NCBI GenBank assembly: GCA_964537615.1
Contig: CAZIBX010000001.1
Coordinates: 1,929 to 65,928, forward strand
Direction of reading: 5' to 3'
Source: an uncultured Pseudomonadales bacterium
GTDB taxonomy: Bacteria; Patescibacteriota; Microgenomatia; UBA1400; PJMF01
DNA: 64,000 bases
Shown here: in pieces, positions 2,839-64,000 of the stretch
How the letters are laid out: every line of letters begins with the position of its first letter
How positions within the stretch are numbered: position 1 is the stretch's first letter
The notes under the pieces: generated by a model
Seen by the model: only the letters and a program-made list of their open reading frames with translations
Databases searched by the model: none
What the model was told of the DNA's origin: nothing
Program-made: the position numbers and the translations under genes

Positions 2839-2840
2839 AG

Positions 2841-3575
2841 ATGAAAAAACAACTGATGAGGATAGTCACGACTTTACTATTTGTTGGTTTGGTTGCGTTT
2901 TACCCCCATCCAGCTCAAGCCCAAACTTGTGGTTTTGCTACTAGAAACCGCTGTGACGTTTGTACTAATAACCAAAAGTGTGTCAGTGGCCTAGGTTGGC
3001 CAATTTATGATTGTAGAACTGTAGCCGGTCAGTGCGGCGCTCCCTGGCCCACCACCTGCAACCAAGGCAACTACTTGCGCTGTGACGTTTGTCCATCTGG
3101 CCAACAATGTCTCAAGAGTGGCTCCAACTATTACTGTGGCACCCCCACCACGGCTTGCGTTACCCCCGCTCCCACTTCACCACCTGGCACCACCCCCACC
3201 ACCCCACCCACCCCCACCATGTTTTCTCCCTACGATCCACCGACCAACGAAACTTTTGACATGGTCAACCCGCTCAAGATCGGTGGTGGCACTGATCTGG
3301 CGTCAGACCAACCATCTCAATTTGCCGGCCAACTTTCCTCTCCAGGAGGCATCGTTAGTCGAGTTCTGACTTATGCCTTTCCTCTGGCCGGCTTGATTCT
3401 TTTTGCCATGCTGACTTGGGGAGGATTTGAGATGATCATGGGCGCTGCTAGCAAAAAATCTCTTGACGCTGGTAAACAACGCGCTACCGCTGCGGTTGTT
3501 GGGTTTTTGATCCTGTTTGTGTCATACTGGATATGGCAAATACTAGAAGTAGTTTTTGGCATCGTGGTGTTTTAA
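2841..3575 (+). CDS. T4SS pilin-like (VirB2/TrbC-like topology) two-TM protein with a duplicated Cys-rich module and Pro/Thr linker
   Basis: A GGAGGG RBS lies 6 nt upstream and there is a signal peptide. Two copies of the motif RCDVC-x-x-x-Q-[KQ]-C-[VL]-x-SG are followed by a TPPGTTPTTPPTPT linker. The C-terminal hairpin is LILFAMLTWGGFEMIMGAASKKSLDAGKQRATAAVVGFLILFV. Confidence 0.6.
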   Translation: MKKQLMRIVTTLLFVGLVAFYPHPAQAQTCGFATRNRCDVCTNNQKCVSGLGWPIYDCRTVAGQCGAPWPTTCNQGNYLRCDVCPSGQQCLKSGSNYYCGTPTTACVTPAPTSPPGTTPTTPPTPTMFSPYDPPTNETFDMVNPLKIGGGTDLASDQPSQFAGQLSSPGGIVSRVLTYAFPLAGLILFAMLTWGGFEMIMGAASKKSLDAGKQRATAAVVGFLILFVSYWIWQILEVVFGIVVF

Positions 3576-3580
3576 AAAAT

Positions 3581-4027
3581 ATGCAGAAAAAATACTTAAA
3601 AAATTGGTCACAAAAAATTTGGAAACTTTTCAGCTTGGCTGGCGGTCTGGTTATAACTGCTACTCAACTAACTTCAACTGTTTGGGCTCAACCCGCACCA
3701 CCTTGTGATCCCGGCTCCGGTGGTATTAACCTGGGTGACTGTCTGCGTTTAAGCGATGACTCTCTGGTTTCCAGTGTTTATAACAACCCAGCAGCTCTGG
3801 TTAACTTGCTGGCCCGCAATTTATTTGTGGTGGCCGGAGTGTTTTTGTTTGGCTTATTTTTACTGGCCGGACTGAAAATTATCGCGTCAGGCAAGGGCGG
3901 CAAACAAGGCCTGGACGAGGCCAAAACTATGCTGACCTCGGTGGCTATCGGTTTTGCTATCATGTTTGCTGCCTACTGGATCGTCCAGATCGTCAAAATC
4001 ATTACCGGAGCCAATATAGTTTTATAA
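3581..4027 (+). CDS. T4SS pilin-like two-TM protein (paralog)
   Basis: The start is moved to the ATG at 3581, just after the upstream stop; the track ORF 3533 overlaps the previous gene. There is a signal peptide and the C-terminal motif FLLAGLKIIASGKGGKQGLDEAKTMLTSVAIGFAIMFAAY. Confidence 0.55.
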   Translation: MQKKYLKNWSQKIWKLFSLAGGLVITATQLTSTVWAQPAPPCDPGSGGINLGDCLRLSDDSLVSSVYNNPAALVNLLARNLFVVAGVFLFGLFLLAGLKIIASGKGGKQGLDEAKTMLTSVAIGFAIMFAAYWIVQIVKIITGANIVL

Positions 4028-4038
4028 TCAGGATCACT

Positions 4039-4407
4039 ATGCCAGCAGATGATTTCATAAACATAGTCGGCAACATTCAGCCACCACCAGGGGTCGAACA
4101 ACAAATTGCTGATTCCGGCCTGGCACCCAATGAAGTAGCTCTGTTGTTTTTTGTTAATAAGATGTTAATTGCCGTGACTGTGGTGATGGGTATCTGGGTG
4201 TTATTTAATCTGGTCTTGGCTGGAGTCTCGTATATTACATCCTCCGGTGATGCCAAAGCTCATACTCAAGTCAAAGATCGGCTGATTATGAGTGTATTGG
4301 GCATTATATTGATCGTGGGGGCTTATACTTTGACTGCCGTAGTCAGTTATGTCATTTTTGGTGACCCCAACTACGCTCTTAACCCCACTATTACCGGACC
4401 CAACTGA
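4039..4407 (+). CDS. T4SS pilin-like two-TM protein (paralog)
   Basis: Hairpin VLAGVSYITSSGDAKAHTQVKDRLIMSVLGIILIV. The stop overlaps the next start (TGATG at 4404–4409), indicating translational coupling. Confidence 0.55.
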   Translation: MPADDFINIVGNIQPPPGVEQQIADSGLAPNEVALLFFVNKMLIAVTVVMGIWVLFNLVLAGVSYITSSGDAKAHTQVKDRLIMSVLGIILIVGAYTLTAVVSYVIFGDPNYALNPTITGPN

Positions 4408-5021
4408 TGTCAAACCTGATCTCAATCACCACTCAAAAGATTAAACAGCTTTTTGCCAAAACACATGTTTGGACACTTCTGTTGATAGTTGGACTGATAC
4501 TGATTGCGCCGATTTCTGTCAGTGCCCAAAACTGCCCTTCCGGCTATCAATGTGAGGGGGGGTGTGAGTATATCGGTCACTGCGTTTCCAACCGAACCTG
4601 TATTTTGGTGCCACCCTTTTACATCCGGCCTGGTGCTAGAAACTGCGGATCTTTTATCATCGGCCGAGTTAATCCTCCTCAAGGAGTAGCCGATTACAAC
4701 ATGCAGACCGCCCTCCAACCAGGATCAGGCAATATCGGGATTTTGTTGTTTGTTTCCAATGTCGTTAAGTTAATTACGGCCGTGGGCGGAATTCTGATTC
4801 TGATCAACTTCGTGGTGGCGGGCATTACTTTGATCGCACAAGCTGGCAATACCCAAGCCATGACCGGCGTCAAAGATAAGTTGACTTATGGCCTGATTGG
4901 TTTGGTCATCATGGTGGCGGCCTACACGGCTATGGCTCTAGTGGGTCAAATTATCTTCGGCAATCCCTTGTTTATCATCAATCCAGATCTTAACGCCTTG
5001 GGTGCTTTATCTGGACCGTAG
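4407..5021 (+). CDS. T4SS pilin-like two-TM protein with an N-terminal Cys-rich ectodomain (paralog)
   Basis: Signal peptide, then a CPSGYQCEGGCEYIGHCVSNRTC Cys cluster. Hairpin FVVAGITLIAQAGNTQAMTGVKDKLTYGLIGLVIMVAAY. Confidence 0.55.
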   Translation: MSNLISITTQKIKQLFAKTHVWTLLLIVGLILIAPISVSAQNCPSGYQCEGGCEYIGHCVSNRTCILVPPFYIRPGARNCGSFIIGRVNPPQGVADYNMQTALQPGSGNIGILLFVSNVVKLITAVGGILILINFVVAGITLIAQAGNTQAMTGVKDKLTYGLIGLVIMVAAYTAMALVGQIIFGNPLFIINPDLNALGALSGP

Positions 5022-5046
5022 TAAGCGTTATACTATCTACACAAAT

Positions 5047-5433
5047 ATGCCACTCTCTTCCAAACTCGCCCAGTTCGGCCAAGGCCTCCAACCACCCACC
5101 GACGCTTTCAGCACCGGCTCAACCAATGATCTGACTCAACCGGTCAATGCTTTTACCAATCTTGAGTACATGGTGTCCAACGTCATTGCTATCGTGACTG
5201 CTCTAGCTTCCCTGATGTTTATTTACTACTTTATCATGGCAGCTATCAGCTGGATTAACTCCGGTGGTGACTCTGGCAAGCTACAAACCGCCAGAAACCA
5301 GATGCTGAACGCAGTTCTGGGTTTGGTGCTACTGGTCGCCAGTTATGCCATCGTAGGTCTGATTGGTACTTTGTTTGGCCTTGACTTGCTCAATCCTGGT
5401 AAAGTGCTCAAAGGTTTAGTTCCCACACCATAA
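5047..5433 (+). CDS. T4SS pilin-like two-TM protein (paralog)
   Basis: Internal Met chosen as start. Hairpin FIMAAISWINSGGDSGKLQTARNQMLNAVLGLVLLVASY. Confidence 0.5.
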   Translation: MPLSSKLAQFGQGLQPPTDAFSTGSTNDLTQPVNAFTNLEYMVSNVIAIVTALASLMFIYYFIMAAISWINSGGDSGKLQTARNQMLNAVLGLVLLVASYAIVGLIGTLFGLDLLNPGKVLKGLVPTP

Positions 5434-5438
5434 CCAAT

Positions 5439-5942
5439 ATGTTCAAACTTCACTTACTAAATCAAACTTTCAGAACCGGTGCGGTGTTTTTGACAGTGAT
5501 AATAACTATGGTGATAGCCACTTTACTGATGGGTGGTAGACCAGTCATGGCCCAGATCACCAACCCGGCCATCGGTGAGCTGGGTGGAAATGATAATTCT
5601 GGTCAGTACAGCCCTGATCCAGCGGCCGTCACTGCAGCCCAGTCAGGGGCGTCATTTTTGGCCCAGTTTGTCCGACTGTGGGGCAATGTAGTCACCATCG
5701 GAGTTATCTTGGTTTTAGTCATGTTCATCTGGGGAGCGATCGAGTGGATTACGGCCGGTGGAGATGCCGGCAAGATCGGCAAGGCCCGCGACCGGATGTT
5801 GCAGTCGGCCATCGGCTTACTGGTTCTAGTCAGTTTGTTTATCTTGATTGGTTTCTTGAGCGGAACTCTGTTTGGCGATACACTTGATATCCTCAAGCCC
5901 AAGTTTGTCACCCCCAATACCAACACCGGAGCCACACCATGA
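5439..5942 (+). CDS. T4SS pilin-like two-TM protein (paralog)
   Basis: Signal peptide. Hairpin MFIWGAIEWITAGGDAGKIGKARDRMLQSAIGLLVLV. The start overlaps the upstream stop. Confidence 0.55.
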   Translation: MFKLHLLNQTFRTGAVFLTVIITMVIATLLMGGRPVMAQITNPAIGELGGNDNSGQYSPDPAAVTAAQSGASFLAQFVRLWGNVVTIGVILVLVMFIWGAIEWITAGGDAGKIGKARDRMLQSAIGLLVLVSLFILIGFLSGTLFGDTLDILKPKFVTPNTNTGATP

Positions 5943-6457
5943 TTTTCAGCTCACTTGTCGCCCAACTACCAGACACCGTACCTTTTGATATCGGAGAGGC
6001 CGGAGCCACGATTATTCCCCATGCCGTAGGCAATAATACGCCGGATACTTACCAGGCAGCTTTTGGTAATTTCTTGGGCAGTATTTTGTCTTTTGTGATC
6101 GTTATTGCAGTCATCATGGTGTTTCTATATCTAGTCTGGGGAGCTATCGAGTGGATTACTTCTGCTGGTGACAAAGGCAAACTGGAAAAAGCCCGCAACC
6201 GGATGTTTCAAGCAGTGATTGGTATTATTGTGTTATCCGGCACTTTGGCTTTTCTGATGATTATCCAACAGTTTTTGGGTATTTGTGTGTTAAGTATCAG
6301 TGGTAAGTGTACCGGGACTTCCAGCGCACCAACTGAACTCTATAGATGCTTGCCCATCAACCAGTGCGGGCCACCTACCAACTCTGGAGTGAGTGTCGGT
6401 AACTGTTCTCCTCACCGGGTGGGCTATGTCAACTGTCGATTCCGGGCTACACCTTAG
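5939..6457 (+). CDS. T4SS pilin-like two-TM protein with a C-terminal Cys-rich tail (paralog)
   Basis: ATGA start/stop overlap with the upstream gene. Hairpin LYLVWGAIEWITSAGDKGKLEKARNRMFQAVIGIIVL. The Cys-rich extension (…CVLSISGKCTG…CLPINQCGPP…NCSPHRVGYVNC) is at the C-terminus instead of the N-terminus. Confidence 0.55.
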   Translation: MIFSSLVAQLPDTVPFDIGEAGATIIPHAVGNNTPDTYQAAFGNFLGSILSFVIVIAVIMVFLYLVWGAIEWITSAGDKGKLEKARNRMFQAVIGIIVLSGTLAFLMIIQQFLGICVLSISGKCTGTSSAPTELYRCLPINQCGPPTNSGVSVGNCSPHRVGYVNCRFRATP

Positions 6458-6559
6458 TCACTACGCCTTGATCAGACAGCAACTTGACACTCGAGAATAA
6501 AGCACTGTACAATATAAAAGTACTTTGTAGCAATCATTAATAATAAAAAAGGGAGCTGT

Positions 6560-6976
6560 ATGAAACAGTCGCTAAAAACAATCACCGCCTTGGGTGGTGT
6601 GATGGTGGGTACTCTGCTAGCCAGCGTGCCACAAACGATGGCCGCCATTGACGTAGGCACCATCGAAGGTACCAAGGGTATGGCCAATAACTTTGGTAGC
6701 TTTCTTTCCAGCTTGCTGACCATCGTCATGGCTATCGCCGCTCTGGCTGTTTTCATTTACTTGATCTGGGGTGGTATCGAGTGGATTACCAGCGGTGGTG
6801 ACAAAGGCAAAACCGAGACTGCCAGAAACAAGATCACAGCCGCAGTCATCGGTTTGATCGTCTTGGCTGCAGCTTATGCCATCTTGTCCATCGTGCTGCG
6901 ATTCCTGGGCTTCTCCAGCATTACCAACGTGTTTGAGAACGTCAAGGTGATCACGCCAGGTGGCAGTGGCATTTAA
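6560..6976 (+). CDS. T4SS pilin-like two-TM protein (paralog; canonical member)
   Basis: AAGGGAG RBS and a signal peptide. Hairpin IYLIWGGIEWITSGGDKGKTETARNKITAAVIGLIVLAAAY. Confidence 0.6.
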   Translation: MKQSLKTITALGGVMVGTLLASVPQTMAAIDVGTIEGTKGMANNFGSFLSSLLTIVMAIAALAVFIYLIWGGIEWITSGGDKGKTETARNKITAAVIGLIVLAAAYAILSIVLRFLGFSSITNVFENVKVITPGGSGI

Positions 6977-7000
6977 TTAAACTTTAAGATCAAAAGTTTA

Positions 7001-7031
7001 ACACCCTCCCAAAGTTTGGGAGGGTGTTTTG
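7001..7031 (+). terminator. Rho-independent terminator inside the paralog array
   Basis: Perfect GC-rich inverted repeat CACCCTCCC-aaagttt-GGGAGGGTG at 7003–7027, followed by TTTT. Confidence 0.6.
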
Positions 7032-7057
7032 GTAATTCTGATATAATAAGTGGTCAT

Positions 7058-7606
7058 ATGTCCATCAAGCACTTCGTACTCACTCTTGTTCTCGTTTTTG
7101 GTATCAGTTATGGCGTAGTTGGCTCCACTCCAGCCATGGCCGCCGGTACAACTGGCACAGATACCAACGCCGGTCAAGTTCAAACTCAAAACACTGACGG
7201 CTCACTCAACTTGACCACCAGCGTCAACACCGCTACGGCTTCCACTACCCCCAATCCTGATCTAGAGTACTTACCGCCTGGTTTTGCCAAATCTTTTCCT
7301 GATCTTTTGGCCAGTATTTTGACCTTGCTGGTAGCAATTGTAGCTATCTTGGTTTTTGCTTACCTGATTTGGGGTGGACTCAACTGGATTACCAGCGGAG
7401 GCGATAAGGGCAAAACTGAGACCGCCCGCAATAAAATCATGGCTGCCTTGATCGGGCTGATCATCATCGCTTCGTCATACGCCGTGCTTCAGATCGTGTT
7501 GCGGTTTTTGGGCTACAGCTCATTGATCGATGCTTTTAATAAAATCAAACCCATATCTGAACCGGGTCGTAACTTGCGGGTTGAACTGACTGTAGAGAAA
7601 GCATAG
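7058..7606 (+). CDS. T4SS pilin-like two-TM protein (paralog; near-duplicate of 6560..6976 in the anchor)
   Basis: Start placed at the internal ATG at 7058 (MSIKHFVLTLVLVFGISYG… signal peptide). Thr/Asn-rich ectodomain. Hairpin AYLIWGGLNWITSGGDKGKTETARNKIMAALIGLIIIASSY, ~85% identical to the previous paralog anchor. Confidence 0.6.
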   Translation: MSIKHFVLTLVLVFGISYGVVGSTPAMAAGTTGTDTNAGQVQTQNTDGSLNLTTSVNTATASTTPNPDLEYLPPGFAKSFPDLLASILTLLVAIVAILVFAYLIWGGLNWITSGGDKGKTETARNKIMAALIGLIIIASSYAVLQIVLRFLGYSSLIDAFNKIKPISEPGRNLRVELTVEKA

Positions 7607-7615
7607 GATAAAGCC

Positions 7616-8035
7616 ATGTGGCGATTACGCAAGTGGTTAAAACACATCGGTTTAATTTTATCTGTCATAGCATTGTCGATTCCGGGCCGAGTTCTGGCTC
7701 AAACTGTGGAGTGGAACGGAGTTTGTGTCGGAGGAGCTGATCAAGATGTGGCAACCATCCAAGGGCTGGAGTGCTTGATCGCCAATGTTTTTACGGTTTT
7801 TATTACTTTGTTGGGGTTGCTGGGTTTTGTCATGTTCATCATCGCCGGATTCAAGTGGATGACATCTGGTGGTAACAGTAAAGGTATGGAGTCAGCCAGA
7901 GGCGCTATGACTTATGCCGTGCTGGGTCTGGTGATCAGTTTAAGTGCTTTTATCATCATCAACTTAATCGCCGAGTTTACCGGAGTTAATATCATCCGGA
8001 CATTTTCTATTCCCACATCTGATTTGGGTATGTAG
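7616..8035 (+). CDS. T4SS pilin-like two-TM protein (divergent last paralog)
   Basis: Signal peptide. Hairpin FIIAGFKWMTSGGNSKGMESARGAMTYAVLGLVISL. Confidence 0.5.
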   Translation: MWRLRKWLKHIGLILSVIALSIPGRVLAQTVEWNGVCVGGADQDVATIQGLECLIANVFTVFITLLGLLGFVMFIIAGFKWMTSGGNSKGMESARGAMTYAVLGLVISLSAFIIINLIAEFTGVNIIRTFSIPTSDLGM

Positions 8036-32630: not shown

Positions 32631-35525
32631 ATGAAAACCGCGGCTATCTCTGACTCACCTACCATCGGTATAGTTTCTACTCACCAGAGTTGGGCTCAAC
32701 TATTGGCTGAAGGTATAAATCGGCCGGGGTTAATAGTTAATCAAATCAGTCCCTCACAACTGACCCAGAACGATTGTTACAAAATTATCTGGTTGGTTGA
32801 TCCGGGTCAAACTCAAACACAAGAGTTAATTACAACCATGAGTCTGGTCAACAAACCATTGTTGGTAGTTTTTCCTTTTGTGTCGCCTGCTTTAACTGAT
32901 CCAGACAAAACAAATCCAGCTTGGTCCAATTACCACTTACACGAAAGACAGGTTCTGGCCGACTTAATGAAAGCTTTGCCTAGTGCGGTGTTTGTTTTTA
33001 TTCCCAACTTGATCTTGCCCGCACCTCTACAACCCTTGTTCACAGATTTGGTTTGGTTAATTTCTCCTCTGGAAAAGGGTTTGTTGTTTGACCCAGACAT
33101 ATCAACTACTTTGACTGGTTGGAAAGAGGCCGCCGACAGCGTTGCTGATTTGGTTATCAGACCTCATTTACCTGATCGAATCTTATTATCTCCACCTCAA
33201 ATTTCCTCTGATTTAATTCTAAAAGAAATTCAGTCGGCCAGTATTAAACAAAACGGCGATCATCCAGATATTTTGACCAGACCGATTAAGCTGGACTTTG
33301 CTTATCCCCCCACCGACCGGGTTCAACCACTTCACACTTCGCCTCGCCAAACTCTTTATGGCTTCTTAAATCAAATTGAACTGCCCTGCGCTGTTACTAA
33401 GCCAGAAATCCCCCAACCTACCGTTTTAGCTCCACAATCAACAGAATCGCCACTCAATTCTTTACTCACCCCACTACCCACCCCGCTACCCCATTCACCA
33501 CTCAACCCACTGCCTCCAACCAGAGATAGTGTATTAATCCCCTCGCCTATTTCCGCACCGACTCCATCACCGCACGACTTCAGTTTGTCTCAATCTTTAT
33601 CAAGTATTTTTACCCATACCAACGCCGTTCAACAACAAGATTATTTAACCAAAATTACCAAGACAGAAATTAAAGAAGGTAAAAGATCGGGCCGGCGCAA
33701 ACGCCTTTTTGTTTTTGGTTCGGCCAGCGTAGGAGTGGCTTTATTGGCCATCATGTTGTTTGGTGCGTTTTCTTTGAATTTAAATCTGGTCAAAAATCAT
33801 CTGGTTAATCGGTTTGACCAAAGCGACCCATCACCCAACTGGCAAACTCGAGCTTATCCTTGGTTGACCTCTACTCTGCAGGTTCAGACCAATATTTATA
33901 ATGCTTTATTTTCCAACCCCAGATTGGAAGAGGCCCAAGCGGTGGTTAACTCCACCCAGCTGTTGGCTCAAGCCGAGCAGCAAACTCAACTTCTACAAAC
34001 TACCGGCCAAAATCTGGTTGCGGCCATGCTGGGAGTTGATGATACTTCAGAAATCGAGCCAACCGCCCAAAACGTCGCCCTACACAGTCGTAGCGCCTAT
34101 GAATTGTGGTCACAGTTGCAAGCTAGTACGGCACAAATTGATTTATCTGATAAAGCCGAGCCAACTGATGGCGGTCAAACCATCAACCAAACTACCACCC
34201 AAACTGATCAGCGACTCAAAAACTTAATCAAACTGCAAAAGTTATCGCCCGTTTTTACCAAATTAGCCCAAACCCCCAAAACCACTGTCGCCGTTTTGTT
34301 CCAAAATAGTCAGGAACTGCGCCCCACCGGCGGATTTATTCAGGCGGTGGCGATTTTAAACTTCGAGCGGGGTCGGTTGGTGGCTTACTCAACTCATAGT
34401 AGTTACTCTCTAGACACCAAAATTTCCGGCCAGGTAGCAGCTCCTGACGACATCAGAGCCATTTTGGGTGAAAGTAATTTTTATTTTCGCGACAGTAATT
34501 GGGACGGCAATTTTCCTACCAGTATGCAAAAATCCGGTTGGTTTTTGGACAAAGCATTAAACAAACAAATAGACGGAATTATAGCTCTAAATACTATTTC
34601 TCTTCCCACGCTTTTGTCCGCTATTGGGCCAGTGGAACTGCCTAGTTATAACGAAGTGATTACTCCGGCCAATGTGGCCGAACGACTAGAGTTTCATTCA
34701 GAAATTCAGTTAACGCCCGGCAGTCAGGACTATACCACCACTCTTTTGGACGCTATGTTAACCAACATCAAAAATCTCAAGCCAGACAAGTATCCGGCTT
34801 TGGCTCGAGCTATGTCAGACATGTTGGATGAGCAAGGTGTGTTGATCGCGTTTGATGATAAGGACTCTCAACAAAACTTAACGGAATTGGGCTGGACTGG
34901 CGCTCTTTTGACCCCGCCTTGCCCCGCTCAATTTACCTCTCCTGATTGTTTTGTCGATACTATCGCTCAAGTTGAAGCCAATGTTGGTATCAATAAAGCC
35001 AATTATTATCTGGAAAAGAATCAAACTCACTACGTGACTTTGACCCCAAGTTCAGCCAGTCATGACTTAACCACGCGCTACACCAACACTGCCAAGTCCA
35101 ACGCCTGGCCGCGTGGGCCGTACAAGGCCTACGTCCGGCTTTATTTGCCGGAGGGAACGACGGGAGTTGAGATCGAGTTCAATCAAACCAAGCTGGCCGG
35201 TCAAAGTATTAAAACCTACACCGAGTATTCTAAGCAAGTTTGGGCTTTTTCGCTTGAAGTTCCGGTCAATTCTTCTCGGGATTTACGTGTCCGCTATCAT
35301 GTGCCATTAACTAGCAAATCCGCCAACCAATCGGACAAATTAAGCTATGTTTTATTTGAACAAAAACAACCTGGTACCGGACCTATGCCGGTCAAAACCA
35401 CTATCCAGTTATCTGACGATCTCTCCCCCACCCTGATTGCACCTCAAGCAGAGGTGTTAAACAAAACCATCATTTTTCACGCTACTAGTCAAAGCCACTT
35501 GCTGTATGGAGTTTTGGCCAATTAG
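32631..35525 (+). CDS. Large single-pass membrane protein with a ~590-aa extracytoplasmic C-terminal domain (DUF4012-like)
   Basis: ~350-aa N-terminal cytoplasmic part with Pro-rich segments, one TM (LFVFGSASVGVALLAIMLFGAF), then a large outside domain (…TGGFIQAVAILNFERGRLV…SNFYFRDSNWDGNFPTS…). Function unknown. Confidence 0.5.
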   Translation: MKTAAISDSPTIGIVSTHQSWAQLLAEGINRPGLIVNQISPSQLTQNDCYKIIWLVDPGQTQTQELITTMSLVNKPLLVVFPFVSPALTDPDKTNPAWSNYHLHERQVLADLMKALPSAVFVFIPNLILPAPLQPLFTDLVWLISPLEKGLLFDPDISTTLTGWKEAADSVADLVIRPHLPDRILLSPPQISSDLILKEIQSASIKQNGDHPDILTRPIKLDFAYPPTDRVQPLHTSPRQTLYGFLNQIELPCAVTKPEIPQPTVLAPQSTESPLNSLLTPLPTPLPHSPLNPLPPTRDSVLIPSPISAPTPSPHDFSLSQSLSSIFTHTNAVQQQDYLTKITKTEIKEGKRSGRRKRLFVFGSASVGVALLAIMLFGAFSLNLNLVKNHLVNRFDQSDPSPNWQTRAYPWLTSTLQVQTNIYNALFSNPRLEEAQAVVNSTQLLAQAEQQTQLLQTTGQNLVAAMLGVDDTSEIEPTAQNVALHSRSAYELWSQLQASTAQIDLSDKAEPTDGGQTINQTTTQTDQRLKNLIKLQKLSPVFTKLAQTPKTTVAVLFQNSQELRPTGGFIQAVAILNFERGRLVAYSTHSSYSLDTKISGQVAAPDDIRAILGESNFYFRDSNWDGNFPTSMQKSGWFLDKALNKQIDGIIALNTISLPTLLSAIGPVELPSYNEVITPANVAERLEFHSEIQLTPGSQDYTTTLLDAMLTNIKNLKPDKYPALARAMSDMLDEQGVLIAFDDKDSQQNLTELGWTGALLTPPCPAQFTSPDCFVDTIAQVEANVGINKANYYLEKNQTHYVTLTPSSASHDLTTRYTNTAKSNAWPRGPYKAYVRLYLPEGTTGVEIEFNQTKLAGQSIKTYTEYSKQVWAFSLEVPVNSSRDLRVRYHVPLTSKSANQSDKLSYVLFEQKQPGTGPMPVKTTIQLSDDLSPTLIAPQAEVLNKTIIFHATSQSHLLYGVLAN

Positions 35526-55838: not shown

Positions 55839-57950
55839 TTAAGGCTTTGTGGTAGGAGTAGGGGTCTTCGCGCTGATGGAGGCCGTGTTCACCTCCAAAC
55901 CACTGGCTTGATTAACCACTTGTTGTGAGCTTTGAGTCACGTTTTGGGAGGTAATACTCTGGCCGCCTAGTAGTTTGCCGGATTGAGTTGATTCTTGTCG
56001 AGTGACGATGGCCTTATCTAGTTCTTCCAGTTGTTTATTAACGCTGATGTAGTCATCGCTCTCTGGTTTGAGTAAGTTGAGAGCGTTGTTATAACTGGTT
56101 TTGGCCGCCTGCAGATCACCGGCTTGATTGAGGGCCACGGCCAGATTAAAGTGAGCATTGGCCAGATCCGGTTTAAGACTCACGGCTTGGTTAAAAAACG
56201 GCACGGCTTGTTGTGGCTGGTTATTGGCCAGAAAGATACCACCCAAAGTAATCCTTAAATTGGGGTCACTGGGGCTGGTCTCTATAGCTTTGACGTAGGC
56301 CTGGACCGCCCATTCCCGAGCATCTGGGGCTGTACTGATCATGTTTTGGTAGATTTGGGCCAAAACCTGCCAGTTTTGAGTATCTTGAGGATCAAGTGTG
56401 GCCGCCGCCCTGGCTTCTCTGATGGCTTGTTGGAGTAGGGTAGCAGTTTGGTTTCTATCTTCTGTTGTCGCATCGGTTTTATTGGACAAACTGGCTGCCA
56501 AAAGTAAGTTGGTTAAGGCGAAACGCCGACGGTTGATGTCCAGATATTGGTTGAGCTGAACAGAGGCCAGGTTATTGTTATAAACCCCCACTCCGTCGTT
56601 GCTGTTGGCCGCCATAGTGGCACGATAAGCGTAGACTTGAGATACGTAGGTGCGTCCCACCAGGTAAATTAAAAAGCCCAGACCCAGCACTACAACTGTA
56701 GCCAAACCAACACTGACAGGACTGAAGTGAGGTTGATTGGTTTGAGTGCGGTTTAATAATCTGGTTAGTAAGTTTTGGTTGCTGTCTGCAGATTGCAGTT
56801 CCAACTTAATCAAGTGTTGTGACAATTTACCATGTCTGGCCCAGACTGCCAAAAACACCGCCAACAGAGACAGTAAAACCGGATTGGGAGGAGTCAGTAC
56901 CAGCAGTCCCAGTAATGTCAGTGTTCCCCAGACGATCGGTTTGACATCGGGTTCTAGTTTGTTTTTGCCTACGGCTTTGACCAGACCTACTACAAACCAC
57001 AACCAGACCACCAGGCCGGCCAAACCCAGGGTGGGCACGATGGTTAGTGGCCAGTTATTGGCTGTACCAAACTGCAAAGCCCAGTTGTTGGTGCCATTTA
57101 CCCAAGCAGGTCGGTAAAGTAAGTATAAGTTGGAGTAACTAGCCGGGCCGTGACCAAAAAGGGCTGATCTGGGTTCTCGCATGCTATCCAGGGCGATGGA
57201 CCAGGACGCTTTCCAGTCTGGCAGAGACAGTTGGGCTGGCTTGTCACTCCATAAAATCCAGACTTGAATGGCCAAACCCACCACCACAATAGGCAGAGTA
57301 ATCAACCAAAATTTGGACTTAAAGTTTTGTTGCCATAGTGAAACAATGCCCACCACACCGGCTACCAGACAAACCTCAATTCCCACCAAGATTGATCCCG
57401 TCAGACTGAAACCAGGTGTGTTGGCAATTTGCAGTCCAGAAATTTGCTGTAATACCAAACTGGGGCCAAAACCGGCCGCCTGGGCCAGAGCCATTATGCC
57501 CAGTCCGGCTCCGGTTATGCCTATCGTCCAACTGATTTGATTGGCCGAGTGACTGGTCAGCAGTGGACTAAGAGTGATAGTCAACAACATCAACCCAGTC
57601 ATTACTCCTCCCATGCCCAGCAGTGACTCGATCGGGTAGGGGCTGGCCAGGAAAGTGCTGACCAGGTACATCAGGCCAAATACAAACCAAGGCAACAAAA
57701 ATGGCGCAGATGACAGCTCCAATTTTCTTTGATATAAGCTTTTGATCAAAAATCCTCCCAAACTGATCAAACCAACCAGGAAAATCAGGTAGTATTTAGT
57801 TTGATTCAGGGGATTATCCGTAAACGGAACAATTAAAAACACACTGGTAATAATCAAAACAACTGCCAAAAACAAACCCAACAGCTCAAAAGCTGGGGAG
57901 TGATTTTTGGGTGAAAAAATGGAGTTAAACATACCGGTCCAGTATAGCAA
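55839..57950 (-). CDS. Polytopic membrane protein (O-antigen ligase/Wzy_C-like) with C-terminal TPR repeats
   Basis: About 12 predicted TM helices over the first 450 aa, a large loop, then TPR-like repeats (…AHFNLAVALNQAGDLQAAKTSYNNALNLLKP…). The family call is tentative. Confidence 0.45.
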   Translation of the reverse strand: MLYWTGMFNSIFSPKNHSPAFELLGLFLAVVLIITSVFLIVPFTDNPLNQTKYYLIFLVGLISLGGFLIKSLYQRKLELSSAPFLLPWFVFGLMYLVSTFLASPYPIESLLGMGGVMTGLMLLTITLSPLLTSHSANQISWTIGITGAGLGIMALAQAAGFGPSLVLQQISGLQIANTPGFSLTGSILVGIEVCLVAGVVGIVSLWQQNFKSKFWLITLPIVVVGLAIQVWILWSDKPAQLSLPDWKASWSIALDSMREPRSALFGHGPASYSNLYLLYRPAWVNGTNNWALQFGTANNWPLTIVPTLGLAGLVVWLWFVVGLVKAVGKNKLEPDVKPIVWGTLTLLGLLVLTPPNPVLLSLLAVFLAVWARHGKLSQHLIKLELQSADSNQNLLTRLLNRTQTNQPHFSPVSVGLATVVVLGLGFLIYLVGRTYVSQVYAYRATMAANSNDGVGVYNNNLASVQLNQYLDINRRRFALTNLLLAASLSNKTDATTEDRNQTATLLQQAIREARAAATLDPQDTQNWQVLAQIYQNMISTAPDAREWAVQAYVKAIETSPSDPNLRITLGGIFLANNQPQQAVPFFNQAVSLKPDLANAHFNLAVALNQAGDLQAAKTSYNNALNLLKPESDDYISVNKQLEELDKAIVTRQESTQSGKLLGGQSITSQNVTQSSQQVVNQASGLEVNTASISAKTPTPTTKP

Positions 57951-57996: not shown

Positions 57997-58482
57997 GTGA
58001 GCAGACAATCCAAGGGTTTTACTTTGATCGAAATTTTGATAACTGTGGCTGTTTTGGCCGTTTTGATTGTAGTGGGAATTTGGTCGATGCGCAGTTATAT
58101 TTATCGGGCTCAAGATGCTCGGCGCAAATCGGACTTAACCAAACTTAAACAGATTTTTCAGGATTACTACAACGATCATGGCGAGTATCCTCCGACTGAT
58201 GTTTTGCAAAACTACTGTCAAAATGGCTCCAATCCGGTGTTAAGCTCTTACCGAACCCAACTGGCTTGTGACCCGGTAACTAAACAAGCGTATTTATACT
58301 TCACCTATCCTGACTCCACCACTCGTACGGCTGGATTTCGCTTGATGACCCGGCTACACAATTTGGATGACCCGGCCATCACTCAACTCAAGTGTCAACC
58401 TGATCAGGGTTGTGGCTTGGGCTTGGGATATGAGGCCTATGTTTATGGTGTGTCGGAGGGTGTGCCGGTCAGTGCGTTGTAA
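57997..58482 (+). CDS. Type IV pilin / pseudopilin (prepilin-type N-terminal cleavage/methylation motif), GTG start
   Basis: N-terminus …SKGFTLIEILITVAVLAVLIVVGIW has the class III signal (G|FTLIE) with Glu at +5 and a hydrophobic helix. Confidence 0.8.
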   Translation: MSRQSKGFTLIEILITVAVLAVLIVVGIWSMRSYIYRAQDARRKSDLTKLKQIFQDYYNDHGEYPPTDVLQNYCQNGSNPVLSSYRTQLACDPVTKQAYLYFTYPDSTTRTAGFRLMTRLHNLDDPAITQLKCQPDQGCGLGLGYEAYVYGVSEGVPVSAL

Positions 58483-58550: not shown

Positions 58551-59114
58551 ATGATGGAATCAGTCTCTCGCCAAGAATCAAAACATAAATCTCTGGGTTT
58601 TACCCTGATTGAGTTGTTGGTAGTGGTGGTAATTTTGGGTGTTTTGGCAGCTGTCGGTTTGGGGGCTTATCTATCTGGTCAGACCAAAGCTCGTGACGCC
58701 AGACGCAAAAATGACCTCAAATCCATTACGGCGGCGCTTGAGGCCTATTACAATGACACCAGAAGTTACCCCCAGTCCAGTTCCGGTCAAATTATGGTTG
58801 ATGGTTGTAGTTTGGGAGTGTGTAGTTGGGGTAGTGAGATGAAAGACAGTGTCGGTACTACCTACATGGTTCAGTTGCCTCAAGACCCCAGGTCTAGTTG
58901 GGATTATTGCTATGTTGATCAGCAAGGTGGTCAGGCCTACTTGCTTTTGGCCAGACTGGAGAACTCTCAAGACAGCATTATTCCCCAAGTTGGGGGGCAG
59001 AACGGCTACTATCTCACCGCCGACTTGGGTTGTAGTCAAGTAGTAGGTAGTAACTATAATTATGTGGTAGCCAGCTCCAACGCCACTCTGCCTACCGCCG
59101 AATTGGAGCCATAA
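58551..59114 (+). CDS. Type IV pilin / pseudopilin
   Basis: …SLGFTLIELLVVVVILGVLAAVGLGAYL prepilin motif. Cys pairs in the C-terminal domain. Confidence 0.8.
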   Translation: MMESVSRQESKHKSLGFTLIELLVVVVILGVLAAVGLGAYLSGQTKARDARRKNDLKSITAALEAYYNDTRSYPQSSSGQIMVDGCSLGVCSWGSEMKDSVGTTYMVQLPQDPRSSWDYCYVDQQGGQAYLLLARLENSQDSIIPQVGGQNGYYLTADLGCSQVVGSNYNYVVASSNATLPTAELEP

Positions 59115-59119
59115 AACTT

Positions 59120-59587
59120 ATGTCAAATAACAACCAAATCAAGCGAGGTTTTACTTTGATCGAACTGCTGGTAGTCATCACCATTATCGGGATTTTGGCT
59201 ATCGTCTTGATTCCCAATATGGTCGGTATGCGCCAAAGAGCCAGTGATAACTCTGGTAAACAACAACTGACCCATCTCAAAGACGCTCTCCGGCTTTACT
59301 ACAATGATTATCAGTCTTACCCCTCAACCGGTTTGAACAATGCCATGAATGGTTGTGGCGACGGAGATGATGCTTGTGTCAATGGTGGTGACTTTTCTGC
59401 CAATGGCACACTTTACTATAAACAACTGCCGGCAGAGTTTTGGTATGAGCAAACTATGTCTGGCGATGGTTTTGTAGCTTGGATCGAGCTCCAAAATGCT
59501 TCTGATCATGAAATTGCCGAGAGTGCCAGCCGGTGTAACAAAACGCCAGCAGTTGGTGATACTTATTACTACGTTTGTTCTTATTAA
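59120..59587 (+). CDS. Type IV pilin / pseudopilin
   Basis: …KRGFTLIELLVVITIIGILAIVLIP prepilin motif. Cys-containing C-terminal domain. Confidence 0.8.
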   Translation: MSNNNQIKRGFTLIELLVVITIIGILAIVLIPNMVGMRQRASDNSGKQQLTHLKDALRLYYNDYQSYPSTGLNNAMNGCGDGDDACVNGGDFSANGTLYYKQLPAEFWYEQTMSGDGFVAWIELQNASDHEIAESASRCNKTPAVGDTYYYVCSY

Positions 59588-59594
59588 TTTTTTT

Positions 59595-62500
59595 CTATTG
59601 CACGATCCACCAACTGAAGTGAATATCTTCAGTTACCGGAGTGTCGATACCGACCACAAACCTGCCGGTGTTTTGGTTGGAGTGAGCAGTTTTGGACTTG
59701 ACGTAGATGACTTGATTTTGAGTACTGCCTTGGGGAGTAATCTGGACAATCGATTGGTCATTGATAACATTGTTGTTGATAGTTAACTCTGTTGTGCCGG
59801 CTGTCAAAACGGCTGTGCCGGCGGTTTTGTTGGCCTGTAGTTGAGCTGACTCACTAGACGGTGGAGCGCCCAGATTTTCTGATCCGACTCCGATCCCGCC
59901 GGCAAACTGGGCCTGGCCTGTGGCAGAAATAGTGGCTACCGGCGCACCTAGCTCGTTGACGATCTCAAATCTGGACTGTTTCAGCTCTCCAGATTGAGTG
60001 GAGAGACCGGCTACCTGGACTTGGAAGGGGTTGCCAAAATCAACCGGTTGAATCAGTCCGGTCAGTAAAGTTTTGCCCACTGTTAAGTTATCTTGAACAG
60101 CTAGTGAGCCCTTGATCTCCACTTGACCGGTTTGGTCCAGAGTCATCAGCCCGGCCAAAAGTTCAATCCGGCCTTGACCAGAGGGTTGGATTTTCAAAGT
60201 TTGGCTGTCATGATCAGAGTGAAGGGCGATGTAGTCATAGCCGATCTCCATCTGGGTGCCTACCCGCAGTTTTCCGCCGATGCCCATCATGTCAGCCACA
60301 AAAGCCGTACCATTAACTTCAAAGTAGTGAGTCAAGTAAGCGGCGTTGGCTCGCAGTGAAATGCCGTTTTCTGGCAAACTGACATCAATTAAACTTTGGT
60401 TAGTTTGACCATCGGCCGAGCTGGTAGCTTCAATGCCGGTAGAAATGACGGCGGCATACAGTTGATCCAGACTGGCCGAGGTAGAGCTACTGGAACTATT
60501 ACTGACATTGAGTAAATCTTTGAGTGATGGTTGGCTAAAAGCGTCGGCAATTTGTTGGTCCAGATTGGCGATGTTATCAGCGTACAGAGTACCAGAGACT
60601 GTGGCTTCAACCAGCTCGGCCGTTGTGGCTTTGATTTGAGATAACTGGGCCATGCCGGCTTCCAGCTGGGCAATTCTGGCGGATTGAACAGTCAGTTCAC
60701 CACCAACTGAAGCATCGCCGGAAACAATCAACTCACCCAGAGCTGTTTGACCAGACACTTCTAAGTTTTGAGCTTGTGTATTTTGAACCTGAATGGTTTC
60801 AGCTTGAATATTTTGGGCTGTCAAAGTGTCTGTCACCAACAGGTCAGCCAGAGCTGAACTGGTAGCCGGCTGTGGAGTAGGTGATGGTGTAATGATGGGT
60901 TGATCGGCGATGTTGGTGTTGCTGATGTTGTTCTTGATGTAATCAGCCAGTTTTTGACCATCTATAGTTAGTTCTTTGACATTTAACTGGTTAATGTTGG
61001 CCAATTGGTTGACAACCAGATTTTGCGTCTGTACCAAGCCAGTTGTTAAAGTTGTTTTGATAGATTGAGTCAAATCAGATACGGTATCTGTCCAATAAGC
61101 TATTGTAGAAGTGAGACCACTTACTTGAGAGGCAACCATGGAATTATTGTTTTCGAAATGATCAAGTAAAGATTGATACTCTTTATGCACCCCTTGAATT
61201 CCCAGCACAGCATACCCCAGCGTGTTGACGGGATTAACAATTGTGCCGTTATGATGCATGGCCCATGATGATTCATCAGCCATCACACCCACATACTGTG
61301 TATCACTGTCCAGTGTTCCCATGCCGGGTTTGTAGTGAAAGTTATAAACAGTAGTCTTGAGTATTTTGTCTAAAGCATCTTGATAATCAGCTACTCCGTT
61401 TATATTTTTAAGCTCTCTTTGTGATCCTGCTGCAGCCCAAGATGTGACGCCGGATCCGTTAGTTTGAAGTTGCTGACCACTGTTACCGGCACCATTGGGT
61501 AGAGTCATAGTCCATACACCAGCTGAAGCTGCGACGCCAAGAGTGACATTACCAGAACCACTACCAGCAAACCTCATCACACCAGCTGTGTTACCGGCTA
61601 GACCTAAATCGAGCATGACTCCAGGACTGGAGTTGCCAATTCCCACTCTTTGTCTAAACCAAGCTGTGCCTCCCACTCCCAGGTTACGACTGATAGAGAC
61701 ACCAGCACCAAGGAAGGAAGTATTGGAGTATGAACCCATGATACCGGTAGTGACTATATTATCTGCTCCTGTATCAATCGCACCAAAGCCAGAAGCAATC
61801 GAACCACTAGTTAAAGCTCCTACTTTAGTTAAAGATGAGTTAACTACGTTATTACCAAGAGTAGTAGCATCAAGAACTGAAGTACCAGCTATATAGTAGG
61901 CATTACCAGTGAGTAGATTAACATTTCCTCCCACACCTAGAGCATAACTAGAAGCTGTTTGACCTATACCTACATTACCTGTGAAGTTAGCTGTGCCTCC
62001 CACTCCCAAGTTACCACTGATAGAGACACCAGCACCAAGGAAGGAAGTATTGGAGTATGAACCCATGATACCGGTAGTAACTATGTTTTCTGCTCCAGTA
62101 TCAATAGCTCCAAAGCCAGAAAAAATACAATCTTTCCAAGCTCCACCTTCATAGCAGCGAAACTTATTATTGGTTGAGTTGTAGTAAGTGGCGCCATTAA
62201 CTTGTATGCCGGTTGGGTCACTAGTCCCGTAGTCCAGAACCAACAGGTCTGTATCAGTGGTATTCTGATCACCGATATTTACCCGGGCCGAGGAAGAGTT
62301 GCCACCGGGGGCTAGCGTCAAATGTTCACTGCTTGGCGTAGTAATATCGTTGACAGCGTTATTGAAGATCAGACCACTTGAGCCGATAGATTTATTATTA
62401 AGAGTCTGGGTGGCATTTAATCCAACAAAAGTATCATTGGAGCCAAAGTCCGGTACTAAATATGTTCGCTGGGCAGCTGGATTGGCAAAACTGATTGTTG

Positions 62501-64000
62501 TTAAGTTGGTCGTGGGAATTTCCAGAGAAGTAGTACCTAGTTGAACGTTGTTATTTTGACTTAACTTGATCAAGTTGATATCGGCCGAGTCAGCTGCGTT
62601 TCTGGCAGTGATCCAAGTGTTATTTTTGAGAGATATATCACCGTTTGGATTAATTCCCAGGTTGGGGTCAAAGTAGCCCAAGTTAATAAAAACCAGGATT
62701 TTGCCCACTGCCGCCGTATCGGCGTTGGAGTAACTTTCTAGTGCTCGGCCGATGATATAACCGGGATTGGTAGCTTTGGTCCCGATACCGGCTACACCAC
62801 TACTAGTGATGGGATCGCCCGGGGCAATGTTACCGTTGGCACTGCTGACTTTAACTGGTACCCGGCCTGAAATGGATACATCAACATCACCATACTTATC
62901 ACCTCCCAGACTTTTTTCTGATGAGGTGGATACGACCCCGATTAGTTTTTCATCACCAGATTTAGTAGCTTTTTCAATCAGTCCGTTAGCACTATTGATA
63001 GCCACAATATCACCGGAAACAGCAGTCACACCTGATGAGAGTAAATATTTTTGTGACACATCTGATTCACGGACGCTGTCGGGCAACGCCTTTTTTTCTT
63101 CCTCCTTTTGTTCTCTGGTAGTGATGGTGGAGTTACGTTGTGCCAAATGACCAGAAATAACGGAATCCACGGTGGGTTTCACAACCAGTTCATCCAGCGA
63201 GTTAACGGTAGTTGTTTCAACAATCAATTCTGCCGGGTCAATGCCGAAATTTTGTGCGATAAAACGCATGGCCCAAAACCTGCCGGCTTCGTAATAACGT
63301 GATTCAATCTTTTCCAGGTCGCTGATTTGATCAAAGCTGGAAAGCCAGCCCCTTTTGTTGACAATGTAGTTGCGAAGTAGATCGGTAATTGCCTGTTGAT
63401 CGGAGGCGGACAGCTGATTGATAAAATTAGATAACTGGGTGACCGTCAAGGGTTTGACTGAAGCAAAACGCTGGCCAGATTTAAGAGAGGTGCCGATAAA
63501 TGGGTTGGGATTGGCCGGATATTCCTCTGGATTGACTGGATCTTCACTCTGCCAGACATTGGCAATGGTTCCGCCAGCATTAACCACTGTCCAGATAGTC
63601 GGATGGTCTGATGCAGTCACATAACGCCAGCGGATATCAAAACTACCACTGACACAGCTCATGTTGATTATCCTGAATCTACCTACAGTGTCATTGGTGG
63701 CGTTTGCCAGAAAAACATTGAGTTGTCCTGACGTGTCATCACAGTCATCGGCTTCAATGCTTGGGAAAAATGAGTAATCATTCATGGCCACATCAAGGTT
63801 TCCGGTACCGGCTGTTGATGAAGTGGCAGTCTTTAACTCTCCTTGACCTACTGCGCTGGCCCCGATATCGCCTTGACCTAGACAATCAGAGCAAGAAAAA
63901 TCACCGGCCGTAACTGTACCAGTGAAGTTGGCGGCACCCGTTACACCCAAGCTGTAACTACCATTGGCGGTTTGACCGATTCCGACATTTCCCACAAATC
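59595..64000 (-). CDS. Giant Gly-rich fibre-like surface protein with an internal phage tail-fibre intramolecular-chaperone (peptidase S74-like) segment; N-terminus beyond window end
   Basis: Frame open from 59595 to the window edge. The N-terminal half is repetitive (GNVGIGQTA..Y.LGV.G..NFTG repeats). The mid-protein segment …SQRELKNINGVADYQDALDKILKTTVYNFHYKPGMGTLDSDTQYVGVMADE… resembles the S74 chaperone motif (SDRRLK…Y.Y…G.iAqE). About 680 aa of Thr/Gln/Ser-rich sequence follow. Confidence 0.6.
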   Translation of the reverse strand, partial: FVGNVGIGQTANGSYSLGVTGAANFTGTVTAGDFSCSDCLGQGDIGASAVGQGELKTATSSTAGTGNLDVAMNDYSFFPSIEADDCDDTSGQLNVFLANATNDTVGRFRIINMSCVSGSFDIRWRYVTASDHPTIWTVVNAGGTIANVWQSEDPVNPEEYPANPNPFIGTSLKSGQRFASVKPLTVTQLSNFINQLSASDQQAITDLLRNYIVNKRGWLSSFDQISDLEKIESRYYEAGRFWAMRFIAQNFGIDPAELIVETTTVNSLDELVVKPTVDSVISGHLAQRNSTITTREQKEEEKKALPDSVRESDVSQKYLLSSGVTAVSGDIVAINSANGLIEKATKSGDEKLIGVVSTSSEKSLGGDKYGDVDVSISGRVPVKVSSANGNIAPGDPITSSGVAGIGTKATNPGYIIGRALESYSNADTAAVGKILVFINLGYFDPNLGINPNGDISLKNNTWITARNAADSADINLIKLSQNNNVQLGTTSLEIPTTNLTTISFANPAAQRTYLVPDFGSNDTFVGLNATQTLNNKSIGSSGLIFNNAVNDITTPSSEHLTLAPGGNSSSARVNIGDQNTTDTDLLVLDYGTSDPTGIQVNGATYYNSTNNKFRCYEGGAWKDCIFSGFGAIDTGAENIVTTGIMGSYSNTSFLGAGVSISGNLGVGGTANFTGNVGIGQTASSYALGVGGNVNLLTGNAYYIAGTSVLDATTLGNNVVNSSLTKVGALTSGSIASGFGAIDTGADNIVTTGIMGSYSNTSFLGAGVSISRNLGVGGTAWFRQRVGIGNSSPGVMLDLGLAGNTAGVMRFAGSGSGNVTLGVAASAGVWTMTLPNGAGNSGQQLQTNGSGVTSWAAAGSQRELKNINGVADYQDALDKILKTTVYNFHYKPGMGTLDSDTQYVGVMADESSWAMHHNGTIVNPVNTLGYAVLGIQGVHKEYQSLLDHFENNNSMVASQVSGLTSTIAYWTDTVSDLTQSIKTTLTTGLVQTQNLVVNQLANINQLNVKELTIDGQKLADYIKNNISNTNIADQPIITPSPTPQPATSSALADLLVTDTLTAQNIQAETIQVQNTQAQNLEVSGQTALGELIVSGDASVGGELTVQSARIAQLEAGMAQLSQIKATTAELVEATVSGTLYADNIANLDQQIADAFSQPSLKDLLNVSNSSSSSTSASLDQLYAAVISTGIEATSSADGQTNQSLIDVSLPENGISLRANAAYLTHYFEVNGTAFVADMMGIGGKLRVGTQMEIGYDYIALHSDHDSQTLKIQPSGQGRIELLAGLMTLDQTGQVEIKGSLAVQDNLTVGKTLLTGLIQPVDFGNPFQVQVAGLSTQSGELKQSRFEIVNELGAPVATISATGQAQFAGGIGVGSENLGAPPSSESAQLQANKTAGTAVLTAGTTELTINNNVINDQSIVQITPQGSTQNQVIYVKSKTAHSNQNTGRFVVGIDTPVTEDIHFSWWIVQ
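61663..61795. repeat. Intragenic direct repeat, copy 1 (~135 bp)
   Basis: ~90% identical at nucleotide level to 61985–62123. Encodes the duplicated peptide FGAIDTGA[ED]NIVTTGIMGSYSNTSFLGAGVSIS.NLGVGGTA. Confidence 0.8.
61985..62123. repeat. Intragenic direct repeat, copy 2 (~135 bp)
   Basis: Near-identical to 61663–61795, offset by 322 bp, inside the giant fibre gene. Confidence 0.8.

Follow-up and report, generated by a model that had tools for sequence, protein, structure and literature searches.

Self-cleaving chaperone domains of the S74 family, known as intramolecular chaperone autocleavage (ICA) domains, occur in phage, bacterial and eukaryotic proteins. In Bdellovibrio bacteriovorus, 13 of the 21 mosaic adhesive trimer (MAT) fibres carry a self-cleaving S74 domain, and an S782A substitution blocks the cleavage (Caulton et al. 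2024, PMC10769870). The present report concerns a giant fibre gene at the end of a 64,000-nucleotide stretch of DNA from a bacterium of the Patescibacteriota lineage (contig CAZIBX010000001.1 of assembly GCA_964537615.1; this whole stretch is hereafter called the window), which encodes an S74 domain in the middle of the chain, followed by a conserved C-terminal module (CTM) of 507 amino acids. Our analysis best supports a self-processing and probably trimeric cell-surface protein built from phage-fibre parts, whose chaperone and CTM would together form a C-terminal assembly pro-region or cap.

Each of the known systems resembles the window fibre in part. The likeness to the MAT fibres lies in chromosomally encoded, cell-surface, phage-tail-fibre-like trimers of mosaic domain composition, in a bacterium that attaches to bacteria, although outside the S74 domain it is a likeness by description only. 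In the MAT fibres the S74 domain ends the protein and has the form SDxxxK, whereas the window fibre has an internal S74 domain of a different subfamily, of the form SQxxxK (SQRELK), with the CTM behind it, and, unlike the MAT fibres, it also contains a second, probable chaperone domain of the G2 type. The MAT fibres open with a signal peptide and then a common beta-rich N-terminal domain of ~130 amino acids; the N-terminus of the window fibre lies outside the window. The myelin regulatory factor (MyRF) is similar in having its ICA domain in the middle of the chain, ahead of a long C-terminal part, and an equal spacing of the active serine and lysine; however, MyRF is a eukaryotic transcription factor of the endoplasmic reticulum membrane, whose ICA domain is succeeded by a transmembrane helix and whose cleavage frees a DNA-binding trimer into the cytosol, while in the window fibre the setting is probably extracellular and the part that follows is itself fibre-like. 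Phage fibres and tailspikes, such as the K1F endosialidase, the L-shaped fibre pb1 of T5 and gp12 of GA-1, share the S74 family, a Gly-rich or triple-beta-helix stalk and the Ser and Lys residues, but they carry S74 at their extreme C-terminus and are encoded among virion genes, in contrast to the internal domain and chromosomal gene described here. Lastly, gp12 of phi29, with its Peptidase_G2 domain (PF11962), is probably homologous, as judged by a family profile, to residues 313-460 of the window fibre, a region that starts at the gp12 cleavage site; in the window fibre, however, this domain is internal, with ~1000 residues after it. It is the internal S74 domain together with the lineage-specific 507-residue CTM that differs from the known S74 adhesins.

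The S74 domain in mid-chain

The fibre gene occupies positions 59595-64000 on the minus strand, where 1467 open codons lead to a TAG stop at 59595-59597; amino acid numbers refer to this visible protein, the first full codon of which is 63996-63998. An earlier reading of the DNA (the original prediction) had described a protein of more than 1466 amino acids that runs off the window end, which agrees with the codon count, but it is the N-terminus that is missing and not the C-terminus, since the gene lies on the minus strand.

The S74 domain comprises residues 859-960 (61119-61424, minus strand) and contains the segment SQRELKNINGV...VMADE (residues 859-909, 61272-61424) that had led the original prediction to propose an intramolecular chaperone. 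When the whole protein was scanned against Pfam, Peptidase_S74 was found at residues 863-909 with 20 bits, against a cutoff of 22; when the domain was scanned alone against PF13884, it scored 23.4 bits (E 7e-5), which is borderline but consistent, and 49 of the 59 members of its subfamily matched this family singly. The whole fibre protein matched nothing in NCBIfam and, at any meaningful level, nothing among PDB sequences. A phmmer search with residues 850-960 against 1.84 billion representative sequences retrieved 349 proteins at E<=1e-3, 265 of them at E<=1e-10, with identities of up to ~70% and named sources that were mostly Patescibacteria. In an alignment of the 59 subfamily sequences (A1), Ser859 and Lys864 were invariant and Arg861, at position +2, was nearly so; the pattern S-x-R-x-x-K was indeed present in nearly all of the 166 subfamily proteins collected. 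The chaperone identity of the segment is thereby well founded. SQRELK is encoded at 61407-61424, and Lys864 lies five residues past Ser859, which is the spacing of the experimentally proven catalytic dyads of MyRF (S587/K592) and of the endosialidase endoNF (S911/K916) (PMC8326128). The scissile bond is accordingly predicted, from sequence, to be Gly858|Ser859, and the domain is predicted to adopt the ICA fold, closing in a long helix of the kind from which the trimeric coiled coil is built. The Ser-Gln pair, which had been noted earlier in place of the usual Ser-Asp, is present but unremarkable, because position +1 is freely variable among the subfamily members, with L, R, S, T, K and Q all found there, and an unusual active-site variant was therefore rejected.

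The position of the domain within the chain was also as first described, as 507 amino acids lie downstream of it. Among the 166 subfamily proteins, 127 finish within ~30 residues of the domain and 36 carry at least 100 residues past it; only one of them (P0150) has more than the window protein. The viral members of the subfamily set this in relief. The subfamily was found in 47 viral loci of IMG/VR, and in all 44 open reading frames (ORFs) examined there the domain stood at the extreme C-terminus. These viral proteins are 40-58% identical to the window fibre over residues ~796-954 and end at about residue 944-954, i.e., where the CTM begins, and no CTM was found in the viral contigs of IMG/VR.

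The C-terminal module and the chaperone domains it follows

The CTM (residues 961-1467, 59598-61118, minus strand) had been described as about 680 residues of Thr/Gln-rich sequence after the chaperone. Neither part of this description held: 608 residues follow Ser859 and 507 follow the domain, and the composition is 10.7% Thr and 9.5% Gln in a module that is common to ~45 other proteins at 27-46% identity; where a source is named for these, it is one of the Patescibacteria (Pacebacteria, Woesebacteria, Microgenomates). A low-complexity stalk was ruled out on the same ground. The CTM runs from a coiled coil through a Pro-rich linker and a beta-rich region to a second coiled coil, and closes with a terminal beta-sandwich (residues 1385-1467, 59598-59846); its conserved stretches include IQPSGxGxLxLLAGLMTLDExG and DFGNPFQVQVAG. 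In the monomer model, long helices and a beta-rich body were seen, and the terminal beta-sandwich was confident, with a predicted local distance difference test (pLDDT) score above 90, whereas the CTM as a whole had a pLDDT of 60, as expected where a monomer of a trimeric fibre is modelled. The CTM profile retrieved nothing meaningful from PDB sequences. Foldseek matches to tail-fibre fragments and to Bd1334 had probabilities of at most 0.21 and were not used as evidence. Some relatives do point to a family for the end of the module, since K1-lyase_C (PF24146) was matched in the last ~70 amino acids by P0023, P0284 and three of 28 CTM members; the window protein itself did not match PF24146, and the relation is through its relatives only.

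To place the module among its homologues, 288 relatives were collected and mapped with profiles for the window protein's S74 subfamily, canonical S74, the G2-type block and the CTM. First of all, the CTM formed the end of the protein in all 46 proteins that bear it. Secondly, wherever upstream sequence was available, it directly abutted an autocleaving intramolecular-chaperone domain, which was canonical S74 in 13 proteins, the G2 type in 16, and the window protein's S74 subfamily in five and in the window protein itself. Thirdly, the catalytic motifs of these domains are retained in front of the module (S-x4-K in 11/11, D-x-[AS]-E in 12/14). At the orthologous locus in six genomes, including the window, the CTM is constant while the chaperone differs in type: the window and L055 have the window S74 subfamily, L004, L056 and L057 have canonical S74, and L058 has G2.

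We favour a C-terminal assembly pro-region or cap, formed by the chaperone and the CTM and removed by cleavage at Gly858|Ser859, and would put its probability at roughly 55%. The preference is based on the CTM following two unrelated cleavage domains with their catalytic residues kept, and on the conserved C-terminal modules of highly variable fibres that are the hallmark of such chaperone domains (PMC8326128). The fibre would be made by the cell itself and exported to its surface, where the S74 and CTM region, both parts with predicted long coiled-coil helices, would nucleate trimerisation. With three S74 domains brought together, the chain would be cut at Gly858|Ser859 by the Ser859-Lys864 dyad, and this would yield a mature fibre of at least 858 amino acids and a C-terminal fragment of 609, chaperone plus CTM, as the pro-region or cap.

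Several points weigh against this picture. The N-terminal end of the fibre, and hence any export signal or anchor, falls beyond the window, and an obvious signal peptide is absent from several of the CTM-bearing relatives whose sequence begins with Met. The whole-protein PF13884 score falls just under the cutoff, and the S74-subfamily profile matched no PDB sequence. Foldseek found no significant known fold for the CTM model, which is itself of poor confidence, and the modelling covered the monomer, trimerisation and cleavage being predictions. Finally, 500 amino acids of strongly conserved, fibre-like sequence with a tailspike-like beta-sandwich would be costly as a disposable pro-region, and the CTM could instead be the distal tip.

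This last possibility deserves a fuller account. The S74 domain might serve as a trimerisation clamp only, or might cleave while the two halves stay associated, and the CTM would then be the working tip at the far end of a continuous fibre, as a binding or enzymatic head. The CTM is indeed long, well conserved and fibre-like in its own right, its terminal beta-sandwich is akin to the C-terminal domain found in a phage capsule lyase, and relatives anchored by the N-terminus have the C-terminus at their far end. On the other hand, a fibre usually varies most at its distal, receptor-binding tip, whereas here the CTM is the constant part, and at one and the same locus the sequence before it changes, the chaperone type included. 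Moreover, the catalytic Ser and Lys, or Asp and Glu, are kept wherever the CTM follows, which argues that cleavage still matters. We therefore consider a CTM tip the main rival, possible but on the whole unlikely. The interchange of the two cleavage domains also bears on a different proposal, in which chaperone and CTM make up a releasable module specific to Patescibacteria, self-cleavage by S74 or G2 shedding or un-capping a trimeric CTM fibre of 600 amino acids from a cell-anchored stalk. If this were true, the presence of two unrelated and interchangeable cleavage domains before a constant CTM would imply selection for cleavage itself. We regard it as a doubtful proposal, and the assembly pro-region or cap remains our preference.

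The upstream part of the protein

The part of the protein that precedes the S74 domain had been taken to consist of Gly-rich repeats. Such repeats are indeed present, but they account for only a portion of it, as a 260-residue orphan domain and a G2-type domain are found there as well. The visible sequence opens with the end of an upstream Gly-rich fibre repeat (residues 1-50, 63849-63998, minus strand, as are all fibre segments below), with an NVGIGQTA... motif and 22% Gly. The strongly conserved orphan domain (residues 51-312, 63063-63848) was aligned in five sequences (A4) with a mean column identity of 59%, and its invariant stretches include RWRYVTASDHPTIW and NPNP; searches against Pfam and PDB gave no match. 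In the relatives this domain is found directly before the G2 cleavage site, where phage fibres carry the mature tip, and it is therefore a candidate mature fibre tip or binding domain.

The domain that follows (residues 313-460, 62619-63062) is probably an autochaperone of the phi29 gp12 type. It belongs to a block that is found in more than 30 relatives (alignment A2), the profile of which matched structures of gp12, the pre-neck appendage protein of phi29, in PDB (6qz9, 3gqh and 3suc; E 1.7e-4) and started exactly at the gp12 site S|D-F-A-E. PF11962 was matched by 11 of 31 block members, whereas the window protein alone matched only Phage_cement_2 in this region of the Pfam scan, and weakly (E 0.004). 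In place of the cleavage motif D-x-A-E, the window protein has D-V-S-Q at residues 313-316 (63051-63062); the motif position is Glu in 27 of 29 relatives, and the Gln is found in the window protein only. It is to be noted that the cleaved gp12 fragment 3gqh starts at the motif Asp, while the long uncleaved chain 3suc, which is presumably the engineered E695Q mutant, carries D-F-A-Q, the same Glu-to-Gln change as in the window fibre. From this replacement the G2 domain is predicted not to cleave.

Both chaperone types were found in a single chain only in the window protein and in P0161 (1522 amino acids), in which the order is S74 (1040-1156) and then G2 (1173-1278). In both proteins the G2 motif is lost and that of S74 is not, a pattern that fits one live cleavage site per chain in such two-chaperone proteins, with n=2.

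Between the two chaperones lie a Thr/Asn-rich, tail-fibre-like shaft segment (residues 461-626, 62121-62618), which is common to P0014, P0016, P0022, P0117, P0120 and P0142, and then a stretch (residues 627-858, 61425-62120) of two 109-residue Gly-rich repeats and a stalk into S74, the homologues of which are tail-fibre-domain proteins. The two units occupy residues 627-844 and have 56 of 109 residues in common. At the DNA level, a 138-nucleotide direct repeat in this Gly-rich shaft (61662-61799 and 61989-62126, spaced by 327 nucleotides) is 93% identical, which indicates a recent internal duplication of a 109-residue fibre unit.

Judged from its domain order, the protein reads as two fused fibre units, i.e., shaft, tip and dead G2, and then shaft, live S74 and CTM. 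The first unit would have a tip-like orphan domain followed by a G2 autochaperone that lacks the motif Glu and would hence be kept in the chain; in the second, a Gly-rich shaft would lead to an intact S74/ICA domain and the 507-residue CTM. The complete protein may be far longer than 1467 amino acids, since giant fibre genes stand in tandem elsewhere: L005 (1-12619) and L057 (2-10288) each have two such genes that end in a CTM. One fibre ORF of L005 exceeds 5149 amino acids, and L057 shows three abutting or overlapping ORFs (1090, 1588 and 769 amino acids) that may be one frameshifted gene.

Genomic setting

The fibre gene lies in an orthologous, CTM-ending fibre locus that was found in five other genomes, namely L004 (Pacebacteria GCA_009991965.1), L055, L056, L057 and L058, in the order fibre, zero to three pilins, a membrane protein with tetratricopeptide repeats (TPR), Obg, LysM-M23 peptidase and Rho, with 26-47% amino acid identity between orthologues. 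Besides Obg, the LysM-M23 peptidase and Rho, the visible neighbours in the window, which are ordinary chromosomal genes, include those for a RadA-like protein, LeuRS and ribosomal protein L25. The TPR membrane protein (55839-57950, minus strand; 703 amino acids, multi-pass, with C-terminal TPR repeats) adjoins the fibre gene at each of the six syntenic loci, and no Pfam family was matched by its N-terminal 500 residues. Its constancy may reflect a partnership with the fibre in glycosylation, export or anchoring, or may be no more than inherited synteny. In L002, a homologue that is 24% identical follows the giant gene.

This setting bears directly on whether the fibre is a virion protein. Each recognisable module of the protein (S74, G2, the K1-lyase_C-like end and the VGIG repeats) is of a kind known from phage fibres, the S74 subfamily is also carried by genuine phage contigs such as L010, where genes for a major head protein, a protease and a head-tail adaptor lie beside the fibre gene, and the DNA beyond position 64000 is outside our view. 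A tail fibre of a prophage, a tailocin or a degraded phage is nevertheless very improbable. The whole fibre protein had no match in PHROGs; the window genes scanned (32-59 kb) included no phage gene; and the GC content of the fibre gene is that of its neighbours. The fibre also occupies the same slot beside TPR, Obg, M23 and Rho in six divergent genomes, its relative P0002 adjoins ribosomal-protein and ATP-synthase genes, and the CTM is missing from the IMG/VR contigs searched. The degraded prophage that had been offered as an alternative thus finds no support among the visible genes, and the housekeeping neighbours and the orthologous locus fit the cell-surface trimeric fibre of the original prediction.

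The N-termini of the relatives fit it as well, since full-length relatives open with signal-peptide-like or single transmembrane segments. Eight of them (P0002, P0005, P0006, P0009, P0015, P0016, P0017 and P0241) start with a cytoplasmic helix-turn-helix-like domain (MerR or integrase-SAM), which is followed by one transmembrane segment and then the huge extracellular fibre; for a surface fibre to be tethered to a DNA-binding domain is odd.

Three prepilin-type pilin genes lie on the plus strand at 57997-58482, 58551-59114 and 59120-59587, and each of them matched PF07963, in keeping with their first description. The fibre gene, however, does not diverge from them: the genes are convergent, tail to tail, with seven nucleotides between the stop codons. 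These seven (59588-59594) are all T, and as no intrinsic-terminator-like hairpin was found between the stops, any terminators must overlap coding sequence. Could the fibre nevertheless work physically with a type IV pilus of the adjacent pilins, as a pilus-tip or pilus-associated adhesin, or belong to a co-regulated attachment locus? Pilins do lie between the fibre and TPR genes in three of the six syntenic loci (the window and L004 with three pilins each, L058 with two), and those of the window have one-to-one orthologues in L004. The only direct link to a pilus is P0144 (L007, 1094-4975; 1293 amino acids), in which a prepilin leader (KAFTLIEVLI, N_methyl) is fused to a fibre that ends in an S74 domain of the window subfamily, with a PilB-like T2SSE ATPase encoded three genes downstream. 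Against a link, the convergent fibre and pilin genes are not co-transcribed, the other three syntenic loci have no pilins, a prepilin N-terminus occurs in just one of the 288 relatives, and the window genes scanned (32-58 kb) included none for pilus machinery. In L004, moreover, the fibre gene is parted from the pilin trio by a five-gene island (2564-7996) of a CopG antitoxin, three AAA_14/DUF4143 ATPases and AbiEi_4. A pilus operon was ruled out by the convergent orientation and the lack of machinery genes nearby, and the combined pilus-plus-fibre module that had been proposed receives little support, the TPR gene being the constant neighbour; we consider a working link to a pilus quite improbable.

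Elsewhere in the window, a 964-amino-acid protein is encoded at 32631-35525 on the plus strand, with DUF4012 as its only recognised domain, and an Rfam scan of the window gave no matches.

Implications for Patescibacteria

The host attachment of the ultrasmall Patescibacteria (the candidate phyla radiation, CPR) is still poorly understood, and to our knowledge few candidate attachment molecules have been defined in them beyond pili. The results presented here delineate a widespread fibre family that is encoded on the chromosome, is assembled from phage parts and has a fixed genomic address. Literature searches with S74, tail fibres and giant surface proteins as subjects, the coverage of which was limited and is no proof of novelty, retrieved no paper on such fibres in Patescibacteria; as far as these searches show, the rule that a conserved 500-residue module follows either of two unrelated autocleaving chaperones is likewise undescribed. 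This rule amounts to a natural experiment on what autocleaving chaperone domains are selected for, and the G2 motif that has decayed from Glu to Gln illustrates how such domains can persist as internal structural modules upon fibre fusion. For the window fibre, the favoured pro-region or cap makes a clear biochemical prediction, namely cleavage at Gly858|Ser859 that would be abolished by S859A or K864A. Should the CTM instead prove to be releasable, the CTM fibre would be a free or host-bound factor, or its release a trigger that exposes an adhesive tip, and the locus of fibre, optional pilins and TPR protein would be a dedicated host-attachment locus of these episymbionts.

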